A stretch of DNA of 64,000 bases, from assembly GCA_014132315.1 (NCBI GenBank), contig BLZN01000104.1, positions 35,623-99,622 of the forward strand. Direction: 5' to 3'. Below, one piece after another: positions 10,081 through 21,863 of this stretch (position 1 is the first letter of the stretch; each line of letters starts with the position of its first letter). A model generated the notes under the pieces. That model saw only the letters and a program-made list of their open reading frames with translations. It ran no database searches and was not told where the DNA came from. Source of the stretch: Rickettsiales bacterium (GTDB lineage Bacteria > Pseudomonadota > Alphaproteobacteria > Rickettsiales > BLZN01). The translations under genes were made by a program, and so were the position numbers.

Positions 10081-10710
10081 TCATTCAGATTTGAACATAT
10101 TTTCCACAAAATCCCACAAGCCCTGCTGCCTGGTGCGCCGTGCGCGCTCAGCATGCAGAATGCTGAGTACGCTGTCTAAGGTCTCATCTATGTTATTATT
10201 AACAATTACATAATCGTATCCATACCAGTGGCTGATCTCGTGCTTTGCTCTGCGCATTCTCTCGTCTATAACCTCCTGACTATCAAGCCCCCTTGTCAAA
10301 AGACGCTCCCTGAGCGCAGCTAAAGAAGGCGGCAGCATAAAAACACTCACAACGTCGCTCCTGGCATTCTGAATCAGCTGTATATTGCCCTGCCAGTCAA
10401 TATCGAGCAGAATATCCCTGCCATTCTCCAGTTTTTGCTCCACAGAAGCCCTCAAAGTGCCATAATAATTGCCAAAAACTTTCGCATGCTCAAGAAATTC
10501 ATTGTTAGATCTGCTTTGCTTAAACTCCTCAGGCGTCATAAAAAAATAGTCTTTGCCGTGGATCTCCCCATCACGAGGAGGACGCGTGGTTGCAGAAACA
10601 GAAACCACGATGCCGCTATCTTGCTGCATCAGCAGCTTCGAGACAGTGGTCTTGCCAGCTCCAGAGGGAGAAGACAAAACTAAAATAAAGCCTCTACGTC
10701 TATTATCCAT
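10081..10710 (-). CDS. gmk: guanylate kinase
   Basis: P-loop SSPSGAGKTT and TTRPPRDGE..G.DYFF, typical of Gmk. Confidence 0.92.
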   Translation of the reverse strand: MDNRRRGFILVLSSPSGAGKTTVSKLLMQQDSGIVVSVSATTRPPRDGEIHGKDYFFMTPEEFKQSRSNNEFLEHAKVFGNYYGTLRASVEQKLENGRDILLDIDWQGNIQLIQNARSDVVSVFMLPPSLAALRERLLTRGLDSQEVIDERMRRAKHEISHWYGYDYVIVNNNIDETLDSVLSILHAERARRTRQQGLWDFVENMFKSE

Positions 10711-10999
10711 CCTGCTAAAACACTACCATTTTTGATAATAATAAGTCATAAATTATAAATAGCTAAATAAAAATATAAACCGCTTCTGATCTGCAGGCAA
10801 ATATAATAAATCCTATCATAAATCATAAAAATCCGTCTAGGAAATCAGCGTAGCCTGATTTAAAAAACATCAATAAGGCTTATTGCTGCAAATCTTCTTT
10901 TATCCTCTGGAAGCATCATGCATAAAGCAGATAAAATAGCATCAGGACTATTAATAAGAACTGCATAGCTTGCACAAAAGCACCCTAAAGGACCCATAA

Positions 11000-12001
11000 C
11001 TAAAGAGCCTCGTCAAACACGCCGCTATTGGTTGAATATTCAAAATTTAATATATTATCCGGGTGCACCAGGCTATAGATGCTGCGGCAGGCCATCGCAG
11101 CTTCTGCAAAGGCACTCAATATCAATTTTAGCTTACCTGGGTAAGTAACCACATCGCCTATAGCATAGATTCCAGGTGTGCTGGTAACGAGAGTTTCCGG
11201 GCTAACCTTGATGCGTTTGCGCTCGATGTCAAGCCCCCAGCCGGCAATAGGACCCAGATCCATCGATAAACCAAAAAAAGGCAACAAAATATCCGCTTCT
11301 ATCTCTTTCATAGATCCGGCAAGGCTCCTCAGAATGACCTTATTTATCATTCCACCGCTGCCCGAGATATCATGCAGATGATAAGGCGTGACGATTTCCA
11401 ACGAGCCTACATCGGCCATTTGCCTGAGTTTTAGCGTACTACTCGCAGTGCAACGAAATTTATCGCGCCTGTGCACCAGATAAACGTTTTTGGCCACCCC
11501 GGCAAGAGCAATAGCCCAGTCTGCAGCAGAATCGCCACCGCCGGCAATCACTACCTTTTTGCCGGCAAAATCTTCTGGTCTGTGCACCAGATAAAAAACT
11601 GTTTTGCCCTCATATTGCTCTATTCCTTCTATCCTCGGCCTGTTAGGCCCAAAAGCACCGCAGCCGGCAGCTATTATGATCGCCTTAGCTTCAATAATAT
11701 TACCCACAGAAGTGACCAGCTGCCACTGGCTGGCTCTGCCACTGATTTTTTCCACCCTCTGACCAAGATGATAAATCGGAGCGAATCTCCCCGCTTGGGT
11801 TTTTAAGTTCGTTATTAGATCCTTTGCTAAAATAGCAGGACATGCAGGAATATCATAAATAGGCTTCTCGGGATAAAGTGCAATGCATTGACCGCCTATA
11901 AAATCCAGTGCATCAATTATACAGCTGCTCAGGCCCAGGCGCCCAGCCTCAAAAGCAGCAAATAAGCCCGCAGGCCCAGCACCTATAATTGCGATATCCA
12001 T
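11000..12001 (-). CDS. thioredoxin-reductase-type ferredoxin--NADP+ reductase
   Basis: FAD motif IIGAGPAGLFAA, then GGQCIALYPEKPIYDIP (typical of YumC-type FNR) and an NADPH motif IAGGGDSAADWA. The likely true start is the internal ATG at 12001 (MDIAIIGAGPAG); the track ORF extends to 12145. Confidence 0.8.
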   Translation of the reverse strand: MDIAIIGAGPAGLFAAFEAGRLGLSSCIIDALDFIGGQCIALYPEKPIYDIPACPAILAKDLITNLKTQAGRFAPIYHLGQRVEKISGRASQWQLVTSVGNIIEAKAIIIAAGCGAFGPNRPRIEGIEQYEGKTVFYLVHRPEDFAGKKVVIAGGGDSAADWAIALAGVAKNVYLVHRRDKFRCTASSTLKLRQMADVGSLEIVTPYHLHDISGSGGMINKVILRSLAGSMKEIEADILLPFFGLSMDLGPIAGWGLDIERKRIKVSPETLVTSTPGIYAIGDVVTYPGKLKLILSAFAEAAMACRSIYSLVHPDNILNFEYSTNSGVFDEAL

Positions 12002-14849: not shown

Positions 14850-16730
14850 GGCATAATCCATGAATGCAAATAGCGTCTGGTTTCGGTGAATCTTGCAATT
14901 TTTTGGCCAAATTTGTCCAAGCTGTGTACGTAATCATAACAGTAGCTGAAATAGATTTGCGGCCAAGAATGGCGCGTAGGGCACAACAAAGAGTGGCAAA
15001 TGCATCAATAAAGCCTAGTATATGCCCTGGGATTTCTAGGGCCCTTTTTTATTGCTCAATTATTGTTCACAAATCCATAAAAGATGTCGCCCCTCGTGAG
15101 CAAAGATAATGCAGAGGGAATTATACTTCTTCTGATATTGAGCATAACCCTATTATGCACAATGCTCTTGAACATGCACAAAAGCGACCTTCATCCACAA
15201 AAAAGCAAGATAAATCAGCCCATATATCTCAACATGTATGTAGATACATGGGGCCATAAACAGTCCCGAGATGCAGGTACATATCCGCAAACCATCCGTA
15301 ATAATTGAGTCTATGAAAATGCAAATTTGCAGAATGGACACACAAACTCACCATTATTTATAATGTATTATTAGAAACCCGGAGCCTTTGCGAAAGACTA
15401 GGAGAAATGGCAATGCGCAAACGGGAGAGGAAAAATACTCCGGACTATTTTACCAAAGAGGACTGATATTTATGGCGATGACAGCAGAAAAAAATCAATA
15501 AAGACAGGGCATTAGAAGCCTCAAAGGTTGATCTAAAAAATTAATTTTGTGCCCATACTGCCCAAGAGCTATGCCCTAGAAATATAACAATTAAGTTAAG
15601 ATAGCGCTCGACGCAACCAAAATTTAAAGATAGAAAACATGAAGAGCCATAAAGAGGAAATATAAGGGGCATATAATCTTAAATATAATAGCAAGGTCGA
15701 GCCCCGCATAAAGAACATCTTTTATATGGTTTGCCGGCCGGAGCAGCGCCATATCTATGCATATAGCGCAGCAAACGCGCGCATAAAAGCAATGAGGCTC
15801 GACAATCTGTGTTTTTATTTTGATTCTAGCCTACAAACCTTCAAAGCAGAAGGCATCAAGGGCAACATATAAGCAAGCGGGACAAAGAAGCATCGACACA
15901 ATAATTAAAATTAGTAAGGTCCATACAACGCTGCAAAAAATATGTAAACTAAGAACACAGAGGCCATGGGGGCACATCCAGTGCATATAATGAATATTTT
16001 GTTGGACTCCTGGCAAAAATTACGAATGGCAAAAATATGATGCGATCTTGATGAAAATAATACAAAGCTCTGCATGCACAACCCAGGATAATGCCTATAT
16101 ACATAAAAAAGCAACAAAGGGAATTCAAGAGGGGATGGACAGAAGGAAGCGGAGGATAAGCCACATGAAAGCCGCATGTGCAGAGCCCTGATGGGCAGAT
16201 TATCCAAGACGCACCCCTAAATATGAAATGGTCCACCTATCAAGAACATTATCAGAGGAGATATTATGAGATTACGCCGGAGAGGTCGGATTATTAATCT
16301 GGAGTTGGGGCGACAGATGCGGCGCAGGCTGATTCAAGAGTTGAGAAGTAATCTTATTTACTAAAATATTAATTAGTAATATATCTATTAGGCTTAAAAT
16401 TATTATATATTTTGTATATTAATTATGTATATAATATATGCTATGCAATAGAAACAAAAGGCTATAAGGTAAATTAATGATAATGCCGCCACAAAATTTA
16501 GGAATGAAAAATGAGCGGAAGAATCCTGCATTCAAGCTGAGCGAAATTAAAGCAAAACAGAGGCAAGATATCCGCACAAAGCGAGAGCCAAAGGGATCAC
16601 AAAGAGCCAATAATGAGAGGCACGCATGAATCATGCTCATATTCAGGGCCAGGAAGCCTTAAAAGCAAAGAGTCGACATCTGTGCTTTGCGCTAAAATAA
16701 CAGATTAAGTATACACTAGTAGAATTACAG

Positions 16731-16760
16731 TATAGCTATGACTTAAAAGTCATAGCTATA
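16731..16760. repeat. perfect 13-bp inverted repeat with a 4-nt loop, immediately 3' of the capsid gene
   Basis: tatagctatgact-taaa-agtcatagctata. It lies 14 nt downstream of the capsid stop on the minus strand. There is no U-tract, so it is not a canonical intrinsic terminator. Confidence 0.6.
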
Positions 16761-16773
16761 CAAAACCGAAATT

Positions 16774-17997
16774 TTAGGCAGAAAGCTGCAATAACCTTAG
16801 CGCCTCACCGCACACTACCGCACCACCAACTCTTTTTGTAATGTAAAAGGTAACCATAGGCTTAGATGTATAAGGATCCCGCAAGACGCTCACACCAGAT
16901 CTGTCAACAATCATATATCCCCGTTTAAAATCACCCAAAACAACCGAGAGCGAATTAGTTGCAGGAGCCATCATATCAGCAGCCTGATAAACCGGGAGAC
17001 CAAGTATAGTGTCAGTAGTGCCCATAGTCATGTTAGGCTGCCATATATAAGTGTTACTGGTAGGGTGCTTAAGTGTTCTTATAAGTTGCGTAGTGGCACG
17101 ATTCATTAAAAATGCAGCACCGGATATATAATCTTCTTTGAGATCGTAGTACATCTTGATGAGATTATCAACGGTAATGCTGCCATTGGTGCCAGATTTT
17201 ATCCTTTTGATATAATCAGAAGATCTGGAATTAGTACGAGTTAAGATGCCTTCGGGTTTCAGCGCTCCATCTCCTTTGATGAATCCCTCGCTTTCCTTTG
17301 CTGCAAATGCCTGCCCAACCTTCTTAATCAGCCATTCCTCAACATCAACAGATGCATCATCTAGCAGCTGCTGTGTTATCTTAGGATTAGCATAAAGTTC
17401 ATTTACTGTGATAGTCTTACGATTAATCCTAGGAGTGTTAGTATTTCCGCTGATTACGACATCAGTGGCGCCAGACCAGTCAACCGTAGGACTAGTATAA
17501 TCTTCGAGCACCTCCAAAGATGCGGTAGAAATATTCTGCACTGTTGCCAGCTGCCTTATGGGAGAACCTTCCAAAGCCGCCTTGCTCATCTCTTCTGCAG
17601 CAGCAGGATCAACGAAATAACCCCCATCCGCATCCCTCTCATTAGAGAGAGTCTTGGTTTGCAATCTGCGCAACGGCCCTTCTGTACCACTACGCAAATA
17701 TGAGCGAAAAGCACTCTTATATTCTGCCATATCTTCATCAAGCACATGATAATCACTGTCAGACGGGCCAAATCCTGGTCTTTGCATGGAAAGCTCAATC
17801 TTTCTAACCCTTTCCTTGCATTTATCAATGTTATCATTTATCCTTTTTAATTGGGTAATGGTTAGTGTGTCTGCAGAGCCTCTTTCTCCAATTTCACGCA
17901 ATCTCCTTTCGTTCACTTGCTTAAATTGCTCCCATGCAGAGCATAATTCATTCACTTTGCGTGTAGCATCAGGTATAGACATAATATATCCCTCCAT
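16774..17997 (-). CDS. HK97-family phage major capsid protein
   Basis: 407 aa. Coiled-coil N-terminal delta-domain-like region followed by an HK97-fold-like body (...GGYFVDP..., ...FLMNRATTQLIRTLK..., ...LGLPVY...). Sits directly after the prohead protease. Confidence 0.85.
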   Translation of the reverse strand: MEGYIMSIPDATRKVNELCSAWEQFKQVNERRLREIGERGSADTLTITQLKRINDNIDKCKERVRKIELSMQRPGFGPSDSDYHVLDEDMAEYKSAFRSYLRSGTEGPLRRLQTKTLSNERDADGGYFVDPAAAEEMSKAALEGSPIRQLATVQNISTASLEVLEDYTSPTVDWSGATDVVISGNTNTPRINRKTITVNELYANPKITQQLLDDASVDVEEWLIKKVGQAFAAKESEGFIKGDGALKPEGILTRTNSRSSDYIKRIKSGTNGSITVDNLIKMYYDLKEDYISGAAFLMNRATTQLIRTLKHPTSNTYIWQPNMTMGTTDTILGLPVYQAADMMAPATNSLSVVLGDFKRGYMIVDRSGVSVLRDPYTSKPMVTFYITKRVGGAVVCGEALRLLQLSA

Positions 17998-18035: not shown

Positions 18036-18590
18036 TTAGCTAGCCAGTATCCTTAGAGCTCTATCTATAGCTCCAAATAAATCTGGATCATTGTTTATCC
18101 CTCCAGATTCATGCTTGACCTGAGTCACGCGCGCTTTTTCATTCGCAGGATTAACAGCCAAACTTATTTCAAAGACATAGCCTGTGGCAACATGGGTAAT
18201 GCCAGTTTCCGGGTCTATATAGTACCTAAGGGGAGCCCAGCCAATAGACACGCCGTTAAATACACCCTCTTTCATCATCTCATAAACCTCACGTGCACGC
18301 TGCACATCAAGGCAAAGCTGCGCCTCAAAATACAATCCTTTTTTATCTTCTTTGGCATCTAGTATTTTGCCTATCGGCTCCCGGGCTATGTGACTCCAAA
18401 GTAGAGTTATGCGGTCAGGGTCCAGATACTCAAAAGCACCTGGATACGTGATATCATTATGCAAATCCAAGTAATTAAAAACACTTGCATACCCAACAAT
18501 CTTGCCAGTTTCCTCAACTGACTTTATCCCCAAGATAGGCTCGGTTTTAAAAGTTTGGAAATTATGAGAAGCTCGTGCAACTGCCGCCAT
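18036..18590 (-). CDS. HK97-family prohead serine protease (S78)
   Basis: 184 aa. GYASVFN..D.HNDITYPGAF, LLWSH....PIG (His) and GVSIGW (Ser) match the S78 signature. Confidence 0.85.
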   Translation of the reverse strand: MAAVARASHNFQTFKTEPILGIKSVEETGKIVGYASVFNYLDLHNDITYPGAFEYLDPDRITLLWSHIAREPIGKILDAKEDKKGLYFEAQLCLDVQRAREVYEMMKEGVFNGVSIGWAPLRYYIDPETGITHVATGYVFEISLAVNPANEKARVTQVKHESGGINNDPDLFGAIDRALRILAS

Positions 18591-18677
18591 ATTACCCCCT
18601 AAAAGTATTTAATTGGTTAAATATTAAATATCTTTTGTTGCTATAAAATTTAAAATTTTAAGATTTATTGCAGAATG

Positions 18678-19205
18678 CTATTCGTTGTAGTATAAGGCGG
18701 TAACTGGATCTGCATACATTAGAGGAACAGCACTTATACTAACCCCCATGATCCACAGTGTACTATAAACTTTTATTCCTTCCTCTACACTGCGCTCTTG
18801 GTCTATTATGCTCTTAGCCTCCATATAGTAAACTGAAGAGTTCATAGACACTCCAAACCTCAGCATCGCATAAATCTCTCTAGCCTTCTGCACCTTCAAG
18901 ATAAGCTTAGCTTTATAATACAGACCTTTTTCGGGATCTTCATAGAGACTCAGTACTTTGCCTATCGGTTCTGCCTGATTAATATTCCACACAACCGTGT
19001 GGTCAACGAAATCTATATTCTTAAAAGCACCAGGCAATGCTCTACCACCGGCACCGGGAGTGCCAAAGGGCAGAGAATTAAGGGGACCATCATAACCGGC
19101 TGCATAGCCATAAATTATGCCATCACCTTCCACTCCACTGGACTCAAACCCCGCGACGTTATCATTTCTCACTATTTCAAGAGAATTAGAACTGATTCTT
19201 CTCAT
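18678..19205 (-). CDS. prohead-protease paralog lacking the catalytic His (probable pseudo-protease)
   Basis: 175 aa, alignable to the neighbouring protease (GYAAGY...LPGAF...VVWNINQAEPIGKVL..EDPEKGLYYKAKL..VQKAREIY). The SH of LLWSH is replaced by NI, and the N-terminal region carries a Gly-rich insertion. Confidence 0.7.
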   Translation of the reverse strand: MRRISSNSLEIVRNDNVAGFESSGVEGDGIIYGYAAGYDGPLNSLPFGTPGAGGRALPGAFKNIDFVDHTVVWNINQAEPIGKVLSLYEDPEKGLYYKAKLILKVQKAREIYAMLRFGVSMNSSVYYMEAKSIIDQERSVEEGIKVYSTLWIMGVSISAVPLMYADPVTALYYNE

Positions 19206-19254
19206 AATTACTCCTCATAAAACAAGTCAAAAATAGTTCGCAAATCTAGCATAC

Positions 19255-20481
19255 TCACTCAAGCTCATCTCCCCCAGCCACAGGACCAAGACCCACTGCT
19301 TCTCTTTTTTCATTTGTGGTCATAAAATCTGCAACTCTCACTCTATCCCATACCTTATCCTGCTTTGCACTAATTGCGCCTATTGAATCTATGTCATAGG
19401 CCAGCCTTAAATTATCGGCAAAAACACAGGAGATGGAATTATTCATACCTTCAATTATCTTATCCAAAAGAGGCAAAACAGTTTGCTCCCATAGGGCTAG
19501 GCGAGCTTCAATTAGATTACTGTAGGTATTGTCTCCCGGTATGCCCAGAAGCTGTGGAGGCACCCCAAAAGCAAGCGCAATATCGCGTGCAGCGCTATAT
19601 TTGACATTTACGTAATCCATGTCCTTAGGGTTTATGCTCATCTCTTTCCAGTCCAGTCCACCCTCAAGCAACATCGGTCTGCCTGCATTTCCGCTGCCCA
19701 TATATAATTCTTCTATTTGCTTCTTGATGCGCTGATATTGATCTTCGGCCAAAATTCCGCCACTCCCATCCGTAGCAGGCTTGACCACCAGAGCTCCGCT
19801 AGGTCTAGCGCCATTTTGCAGCAAGGCCTGGTTCCAGGCGGCAGCCTGATTATGCTGATCTATGCTATAGGCCGCAGCTTCAACTGGAGAAAGACCGTAG
19901 CGGTCATCAGTGGGATGAAAAGTTTTTAAGTGCAGGATATCGGATTTTCCACTAAATTTATTAACCCGAAAATTCTTGACCTTATCACCTACCTTATATT
20001 CATAACTCATCAGGCCTTTTTCAGTAGCTACAATCTTGATGCGATCAGGTCTTAGCAGATATAATTCTTCGGGATATTGTCTGGAGCTAGAATAGGCCTT
20101 AACTACATATGCATTGCCGCTGATCAACAAATATTCAATAATATTTTCAATAAAATCCACCCCAGACATAAAAGGATTGGGCTTCTGCAGCAAATTTAGC
20201 AAAGGGTGAGTGTTTAGCTCCGCCTGATTCTCAGCATTATATAGCTTAATGGAGACAGAGGACGCTGCAGCCGCTATCATGTTAATACATCTGTGGACTA
20301 TAACATTTTTAATGTAGCCCTCTCTGGCAAACTGCACATAACCCCTACCGGTCCATGCCGGATCACCCATGGAATAAACAAAAGATCTCTGCGCAAAAAG
20401 ATCGTGTCTCAAGTTAGAGCCATTAATACTTTTTGTATGTTTATTGCGTAGTCTTTTTGTTAACTTCTTTACAATACTCAT
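19255..20481 (-). CDS. HK97-family phage portal protein
   Basis: 408 aa. Size, position upstream of protease and capsid, and portal-like conserved stretches (...GNAY..., ...YGLSPVEAA..., ...LAFGVPPQLLG...). Confidence 0.85.
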   Translation of the reverse strand: MSIVKKLTKRLRNKHTKSINGSNLRHDLFAQRSFVYSMGDPAWTGRGYVQFAREGYIKNVIVHRCINMIAAAASSVSIKLYNAENQAELNTHPLLNLLQKPNPFMSGVDFIENIIEYLLISGNAYVVKAYSSSRQYPEELYLLRPDRIKIVATEKGLMSYEYKVGDKVKNFRVNKFSGKSDILHLKTFHPTDDRYGLSPVEAAAYSIDQHNQAAAWNQALLQNGARPSGALVVKPATDGSGGILAEDQYQRIKKQIEELYMGSGNAGRPMLLEGGLDWKEMSINPKDMDYVNVKYSAARDIALAFGVPPQLLGIPGDNTYSNLIEARLALWEQTVLPLLDKIIEGMNNSISCVFADNLRLAYDIDSIGAISAKQDKVWDRVRVADFMTTNEKREAVGLGPVAGGDELE

Positions 20482-21220: not shown

Positions 21221-21439
21221 CTATAATACTAAAGGCATAGAATCAGTTATCCAGACCCAACCAGCAAAAGGATCCCAAGCCAAAGTTTGACAATAATAGT
21301 TGGTTACGCAATAATAGTTGGTTTCACATAGATATGTTCCAAAAAACCAATAACAGTCTTGAACTGGGTAACAATCTTCATATGCAACTACTCTGTCGCA
21401 AGTAGGGACATAGTAATCAACTACTATCATATCAGTCAT
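21221..21439 (-). CDS. 72-aa Cys/Tyr/Trp-rich orphan peptide
   Basis: Perfect SD (AGGAGG, 5-nt spacer). Six Cys with spacing C-x8-C-x5-C-x8-C-x5-C-x5-C. Internal TNYYC duplication encoded by an 18-nt tandem repeat (21291-21326). Confidence 0.5.
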   Translation of the reverse strand: MTDMIVVDYYVPTCDRVVAYEDCYPVQDCYWFFGTYLCETNYYCVTNYYCQTLAWDPFAGWVWITDSMPLVL

Positions 21440-21593: not shown

Positions 21594-21863
21594 TTATCCC
21601 AAAAAAGAGTCATAATCAAGGACATCACGGTCATATACATTAAACAGGCCTTGAGTAGCTATATTATCTCCTGCCAATGTACCAGTCAAATCAACACTAC
21701 TAGGTAGCCACCAAGGTTTATAAGAATAGCCCTCACTAACTACAGCACTATCATACCAATATTCTTGTCGGACATGTATTATGCCAGGCTCATAAGTATA
21801 TATAAATTTTGCATAATCAGCAACAGATTCAGATCCACAACCAGTAATAGCTTTAGATGTCAT
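21594..21863 (-). CDS. 89-aa aromatic-rich acidic orphan protein
   Basis: Isolated ORF in an AT-rich spacer, co-oriented with the other small ORFs. Composition is rich in Y, W and D. SD-like AGGT upstream. Confidence 0.4.
   Translation of the reverse strand: MTSKAITGCGSESVADYAKFIYTYEPGIIHVRQEYWYDSAVVSEGYSYKPWWLPSSVDLTGTLAGDNIATQGLFNVYDRDVLDYDSFLG

Follow-up and report, generated by a model that had tools for sequence, protein, structure and literature searches.

A probable pseudo-protease of the S78 prohead protease family in a gene-transfer-agent-like head module of one Rickettsiales lineage

INTRODUCTION

In the textbook scheme of HK97-type capsid assembly, the scaffold is removed by a single protease after that protease has been packaged. 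The C-terminal tail of the HK97 protease is said, from work of Duda, Oh, and Hendrix in 2013, to carry the protease into the prohead. A second copy of a head protease is known from giant phages: gp117 of SPN3US and its counterparts in phiKZ-like phages have diverged from the S80 prohead protease gp245, of which they are paralogs, and gp117 has neither an aligned catalytic His nor the C-terminal prohead-targeting region, a situation that its authors called “unprecedented” in 2017 (Ali et al. 2017, PMC5694885). Outside capsid maturation, dead paralogs with a function are described in reports on the Clostridioides difficile pseudoproteases CspA and CspC, which control their active paralog CspB (PMC7200643, PMC6636752), and on the trypanosome AdoMetDC prozyme, an activator that is itself a dead paralog (PMC5201418).

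Small, head-only clusters of gene transfer agent (GTA) genes under purifying selection are reported from Rickettsiales and Holosporaceae endosymbionts in two papers (George et al. 2022, PMC9254644; Shakya et al. 2017, PMC5721377), and a term search of both found no second, inactive protease gene. A literature search for an S78 or GTA pseudo-protease, of incomplete coverage, likewise found none. Here we describe a candidate in a 64-kb stretch of DNA (the window) whose source record names a Rickettsiales bacterium with the locus tag RLOatenuis_3840.

RESULTS

Gene order and signals of the head module

All coordinates refer to the 64-kb window. The head genes lie on the minus strand and form a tight four-gene module in the order portal, psi, protease, and major capsid, where psi is our label for the 175-aa open reading frame (ORF) upstream of the 184-aa protease ORF. 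The genes and their start signals are as follows.

19255..20481, minus strand: portal gene, 408 aa, first in the head module (PF04860, E 1e-87; TIGR01537, E 1e-68)
19211..19216, minus strand: Shine-Dalgarno GAGGAG, 5 nt 5' of the psi ATG (sequence reading)
18678..19205, minus strand: psi, 175 aa, likely dead paralog of an S78 prohead protease
18595..18600, minus strand: Shine-Dalgarno AGGGGG, 4 nt 5' of the protease ATG (sequence reading)
18036..18590, minus strand: HK97/S78 prohead protease, predicted active type, 184 aa (PF04586, E 1e-24)
16774..17997, minus strand: HK97-fold major capsid gene, 407 aa as listed (PF05065, E 5e-71; TIGR01554, E 2e-91)

The intergenic gaps are 49, 87, and 38 nt, the 87-nt gap being the one between psi and the protease, and a scan of the minus strand between 16000 and 22000 gave no terminator-like site. 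Purine-rich motifs stand at the psi Shine-Dalgarno site in contigs L001 and L005/L006 as well, that is, in all three lineages described below, and the L001 protease has the Shine-Dalgarno sequence AGGAGG in the same place. The spacing is operon-like, with a predicted ribosome-binding site before each gene, and psi and the protease are thus apparently placed for coexpression. A frameshift or a fusion of the psi and protease ORFs was considered and dropped, given their separate starts and ribosome-binding sites and the 87 nt between them.

In the capsid protein, the PF05065 match covers residues 125 to 404, and the stretch N-terminal of this domain is probably the counterpart of the HK97-type delta (scaffold) domain. 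The listed start of the capsid ORF is the ATG at 17997, and a second ATG lies at 17982 with a GGAGGG motif just upstream. Because this motif falls inside the first codons of the listed ORF, directly before 17982, the second ATG is probably the true start (402 aa); both variants occur among the start calls on the related contigs L001 and L002.

Between gltX and the portal gene, the strand of the head genes carries two further small ORFs, each of which has a counterpart in the second species.

21221-21439, minus strand: 72-aa ORF (L001 5938-6150)
20740-20961, minus strand: 73-aa ORF (L001 6247-6465)

The 72-aa ORF has six Cys residues, is rich in Tyr and Trp, and, compared by eye, shares about three-quarters of its residues with the L001 counterpart; the 73-aa ORF has a hydrophobic N-terminal stretch and an acidic, Tyr-rich tail. 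Neither had a PHROG match, nor did the L001 copy of the 73-aa ORF have a Pfam match, and they may both be part of the head operon. L001 has no counterpart of a third Tyr-rich ORF (21594-21863). At the other end of the module, no long ORF is present in the ~1.9 kb that separate DUF2497 from the capsid gene (14850-16770); in L001, the syntenic stretch (10555-11489) has two opposite-strand ORFs, of 169 and 133 aa, and gene decay in the window genome may account for the difference.

The active-type protease

The 184-aa protein scores 88 bits on PF04586 (cutoff, 21; E 1e-24) and 89.6 bits on TIGR01543 (cutoff, 59), and in alignments the HK97 gp4 columns H65, S114, and E141 correspond to its H67, S115, and E141. 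The codons of the first two are as follows.

18390-18392, minus strand: H67 codon of the 184-aa protease, aligned to HK97 gp4 His65
18246-18248, minus strand: S115 codon of the 184-aa protease, aligned to HK97 gp4 Ser114

By these profile and alignment matches, it is a normal HK97-type S78 prohead protease of the active type, as the sequence-only reading had it from the catalytic context LLWSH and GVSIGW. The public NCBI record names the protein “primosomal replication protein N,” a label that is a misannotation judging from its scores on PF04586 and TIGR01543. Its AlphaFold2 model (pLDDT 82.3) has a C-terminal helix predicted at residues 169 to 183, and Foldseek matched the model to T4 gp21 and herpesvirus proteases. 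Such structural relatives were recovered by fold searches only: among solved structures, a sequence search with the S78 profile gave no match, and one with the 184-aa protein gave only a chance-level glycerol dehydrogenase (E 0.5).

Homology and catalytic columns of psi

That the two ORFs are homologous, as first read from their shared motifs, is borne out by BLASTP (33% identity over 159 columns, E 1e-20) and by hhalign of a psi-family profile against 49 active S78 proteins (probability 99.8%, E 2e-27, 131 columns). All of the motifs quoted in that reading are present (GYA, PGAF, EPIGK, KGLY, VQ(K/R)ARE, LLWSH, GVSIGW, and VVWNINQAEPIG). Psi itself had no family match in Pfam (PF04586 not matched at E<=1) or NCBIfam, and its homology is therefore drawn from BLASTP, PHROGs, and hhalign. 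PHROG 80 (head maturation protease) matches psi with E 5e-9, over residues 23 to 119 only, and all three known members of the psi family (see below) with E 5e-9 to 6e-12. One of these members, P0123, reaches 29.9 bits on the NCBIfam S78 model (cutoff, 59).

Both catalytic residues of HK97 gp4, His65 and Ser114, are present in the phage HK97 sequence that we retrieved, and they align to I75 and S124 of psi.

18981-18983, minus strand: psi I75 codon, catalytic His column (MAFFT and hhalign against HK97 gp4)
18834-18836, minus strand: psi S124 codon, catalytic Ser column (MAFFT and hhalign against HK97 gp4)

The replacement of the catalytic His by Ile, the central claim of the sequence-only reading, thus holds. 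The loss is wider than first noted and extends to the acid, the Gly of SxG, two near-invariant Asp residues, and the Asn of PAN, as seen when 264 aligned active-type S78 proteins are compared with the three psi proteins (in the order window, P0002, P0123).

Catalytic His (H65, HK97 numbering): active S78, 264/264; psi, I / M / L
Catalytic Ser (S114): active S78, 262/262 nongap; psi, S / A / A
Gly of SxG (G116): active S78, 259/264; psi, Y / L / L
Acid (E141): active S78, E or D in 257/257 nongap; psi, G / L / S
Asp (D37): active S78, 258/264; psi, P / P / Y
Asp (D41): active S78, 243/264; psi, G / G / S
Asn of PAN (N150): active S78, 240/264; psi, D / D / D

The catalytic Ser is kept in the window psi only. 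The acidic column is conserved in active S78 proteins about 27 residues past the Ser. Going by this spacing, it is probably equivalent to the Asp in the His-Ser-Asp triad of T4 gp21-type proteases, a triad that has been described for SPN3US gp245 (PMC5694885). Another His at the catalytic position, which would have refuted the sequence-only reading, is not indicated by the alignments: the two relatives have Leu in place of H69, the sole His of the window psi, and the three proteins share no His or Cys column.

Psi also differs in architecture. A Gly-rich insertion (residues ~40 to 55) takes the place of the D.HNDIT segment, as had been noticed, and all three psi proteins stop short of the conserved Lys and C-terminal helix seen in the active proteins, so that the tail is absent. 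About 70 positions are invariant among the three, the very N and C termini included. They comprise the structural motifs GYA, PGAF, W, EPIGK, ED, GL, and VQxARE as well as conserved private termini that the protease does not have (NSLEIVRNDN at the N terminus and ADPxTxxYYNE at the C terminus). The former active-site columns differ among the psi members, while the structural core motifs stay invariant.

Confidence in the AlphaFold2 model of psi is low, at a pLDDT of 59.5 overall and of less than 50 in the C-terminal third. With this model, Foldseek found T4 gp21 (probability 0.99, TM 0.41) and BFVD prohead proteases (probability 1.00, TM up to 0.56), and the PDB matches were T4 gp21 and herpesvirus proteases. 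Both models match T4 gp21 and herpesvirus proteases, so that the fold tentatively assigned to psi is in keeping with what the sequences indicate.

Distribution, retention, and selection

A word-based search yielded one psi relative, P0002 (65% identity), and HMMER over 1.84 billion representatives yielded one more, P0123 (164 aa, 48% identity, E 2e-45), the next scores being those of ordinary S78 proteases at E 1e-11 and worse. The family thus has three members (window, P0002, and P0123) of 175, 175, and 164 aa. A metagenome scan with the psi alignment gave no match, and one with the portal gave a single short, unrelated-looking contig. The metagenome contig of P0002 is 112 kb long and encodes hisS, gltX, portal, psi, protease, capsid, DUF2497, and holA; gene order and flanks are those of the window, and the contig represents a second species at 65 to 86% amino acid identity. 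P0123, from a third lineage, lies on short contigs, where psi is preceded by the C terminus of a portal and followed by an S78 protein bearing the LWSH motif. Hence, the order portal-psi-protease recurs across three diverged lineages.

Outside this clade, the closest active relative, locus L014 (portal, 48% identical; protease, 47% identical), has the order portal, one protease, capsid, with nothing between them, and the other close relatives are single genes. This suggests that psi is specific to one Rickettsiales clade. Duplicated head proteases, which the sequence-only reading had called unusual, are indeed rare in phages: the 184-aa protein matches 871 phage records, and only 2 of them have two matching places. 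Two is the maximum number of records with two detectable copies, because the 871 records give only 873 matching places.

Between the window and the second species, psi has a dN/dS of 0.36 (Nei-Gojobori; bootstrap 95% confidence interval, 0.22 to 0.56); the protease (0.26), the capsid (0.22), the portal (0.12), and neighboring housekeeping genes (0.11 to 0.16) have lower values. Against the third lineage, the psi values are 0.25 to 0.30. These estimates come from few comparisons among three family members. The psi frame is intact across the three lineages, over dS values from 0.6 to about 1.6. By these measures, psi is maintained under purifying selection and is not decaying. Together with the Shine-Dalgarno motifs, a dN/dS of 0.36 and a frame intact in three lineages make it unlikely that the 175-aa ORF is not expressed, the outcome that would have undone the first interpretation.

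Origin of psi

In a neighbor-joining tree, the three psi proteins form one clade and the two active neighbors form another (200/200 bootstraps each), and the two clades are sisters in only 111/200 bootstraps. Psi and the neighboring protease share no rare residues (count, zero). Relative-rate counts, which presume that psi and the protease are sisters and vary with the outgroup, give psi more unique changes than the active copy (e.g., 27 versus 8 and 29 versus 7). Psi arose most simply by tandem duplication in place and rapid divergence thereafter, an origin that is plausible but unproven; because of the 111/200 bootstraps and the zero count of shared rare residues, we do not claim duplication in place, and acquisition of a second S78 gene is a possible alternative.

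Gene-transfer-agent context

In a comparison confined to solved structures, the best match of the portal is Rcc01684 of the Rhodobacter capsulatus GTA (RcGTA; E 4.5e-92; the next, “portal protein gp1,” has E 4e-18), and that of the capsid is RcGTA Rcc01687 (E 3e-59; next, 4e-37). The flanks hisS-gltX and DUF2497-holA are common to the window and the second species, and beyond the head genes, all long window ORFs with a Pfam family are housekeeping genes. No integrase, terminase, adaptor, or tail gene and no prophage border was found within the 64-kb window, which has only the four head genes; its RNA genes amount to one tRNA-Leu. A prophage was rejected on two grounds, namely, that there are no phage genes beyond these four and that the host flanks are conserved. 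Judged from gene content and profile matches, the four genes form a phage-derived, RcGTA-like head cluster in the chromosome of a Rickettsiales bacterium, a context that was missed at first reading, and the cluster fits the head-only GTA clusters of endosymbionts.

A genome scan with the portal gave five loci. Three of them (L007, L009, and L011, from Rickettsia/Rickettsiaceae) have a portal homolog of 37 to 49% identity with no protease or capsid gene within ~6 kb. These lone portals are therefore uninformative on psi, and the head module is thus scattered in other Rickettsiaceae and kept together in the window lineage. Another locus, L008, on the chromosome of the planctomycete Tundrisphaera lichenicola, has a portal 47% identical to that of the window, followed ~1.3 kb downstream by one S78 protease and a capsid gene; this match is unexpectedly close for an organism outside the Alphaproteobacteria.

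DISCUSSION

Taken together, psi is likely a pseudoenzyme, a homolog of the S78 protease that is without the catalytic residues and is kept by purifying selection; its inactivity we infer from the lost residues. We favor, with reasonable though not full confidence, the reading that psi is a maintained, translated, dead S78 pseudo-protease, encoded in an RcGTA-like head module that one Rickettsiales lineage carries in its chromosome and passes on vertically. In this proposal, psi would be made together with the active protease and would act without catalysis in procapsid assembly or maturation. It would most likely bind the active protease, in a heterodimer that could tune the amount or the timing of cleavage; the N-terminal scaffold domain of the capsid protein is an alternative partner. 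Since psi is tail-less, it would need a partner for encapsidation or would act outside the shell.

A more specific version, which we hold only tentatively and think has perhaps one chance among several, makes psi an obligate noncatalytic partner of the protease, either as a prozyme-like activator or as a brake on the timing and extent of scaffold cleavage. If this were true, psi would be the first pseudoenzyme that regulates an HK97-type capsid maturation protease, and it would have evolved within a domesticated GTA head module of an intracellular bacterium.

Somewhat less probable, and in our view unlikely, is that psi is itself a structural part (scaffold-like, an internal head protein, or cargo of a domesticated shell) that does not work through the active protease. 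The conserved private termini, absent in the protease, speak for such a role, and with no terminase or tail gene in the 64-kb window, the shell may serve another purpose; head-only GTA remnants are also under selection in endosymbionts, according to one study (PMC9254644). On the other hand, the capsid ORF already has ~120 residues N-terminal of its Pfam domain, like the HK97 delta scaffold domain, so that a separate scaffold is not obviously needed. Psi also has no tail of the kind that reportedly targets HK97-type proteases into proheads.

We give little credence to psi being a functionless, decaying relic of a duplication whose ORF happens to be unbroken yet. Selection on it is the most relaxed within the module (dN/dS, 0.36 versus 0.12 to 0.26), it has more lineage-specific changes than the active copy, and it falls below the Pfam and NCBIfam thresholds. 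However, its frame has stayed intact in three lineages over dS values between 0.6 and about 1.6, its dN/dS stays well under 1 even at the upper confidence limit (0.56), and ~70 positions, extreme termini included, are invariant, with the Shine-Dalgarno motifs kept. Useless DNA is usually deleted from reduced endosymbiont genomes, which also argues against a relic.

Least probable of all, and in our estimation barely credible, is that psi is still a protease with relocated or noncanonical residues, e.g., a Ser-Lys dyad of S123 and K83: S123 (beside the canonical Ser column), K83, and several Lys and Glu residues are invariant in the three psi proteins, and migration of catalytic residues is known in some “pseudoenzymes” (PMC10211241), but psi has no conserved His or Cys, the acid, the SxG Gly, and both Asp residues are lost, the former catalytic columns vary among the psi proteins in a pattern of released constraint, and K83 is not a new feature, because it is part of the EPIGK motif, which active S78 proteins keep too.

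If psi is, as we favor, a maintained pseudo-protease, a conserved dead copy beside its enzyme would add a regulatory or structural layer that is undescribed for the S78 family or for gene transfer agents, and it would bear on the reason for which head-only GTA remnants are retained under selection by obligate intracellular bacteria. Psi is not widespread (three lineages among 1.84 billion representatives), and its importance is that of a mechanistic curiosity and a tractable four-gene test case.

Compared with HK97 gp4 and the MEROPS S78 family, the 184-aa protein is a regular member, likewise encoded between the portal and capsid genes. Psi shares the core motifs GYA, PGAF, EPIGK, GL, and VQxARE with this family and differs from it in having no catalytic His, acid, SxG Gly, or tail and, in two of the three members, no catalytic Ser. 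The nearest precedent for psi is SPN3US gp117, which is also a second, diverged protease copy lacking the aligned His and the C-terminal region. There are four differences between them: (i) gp117 belongs to the S80/T4 gp21-like family and psi to S78, (ii) gp117 is found in lytic giant phages, whereas psi lies in a chromosomal GTA-like module of an intracellular bacterium, (iii) the gp117 and gp245 genes are not adjacent, whereas those of psi and the protease are, and (iv) gp117 keeps the aligned Ser and Asp, whereas the loss of the triad is more complete in psi. The Csp pseudoproteases and the AdoMetDC prozyme resemble psi as dead paralogs under selection beside an active enzyme of the same family; their folds and pathways are unrelated to those of psi, and the comparison is one of analogy only.

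As for the module, its portal and capsid are, among solved entries, closest to RcGTA, in which the corresponding genes are g3-g4-g5 (Rcc01684, Rcc01686, and Rcc01687), and the nearest single-copy relative differs from the window in having one protease directly after the portal. Like the GTA head clusters of endosymbionts, the window cluster is small, head-only, set among host genes, and apparently under purifying selection.
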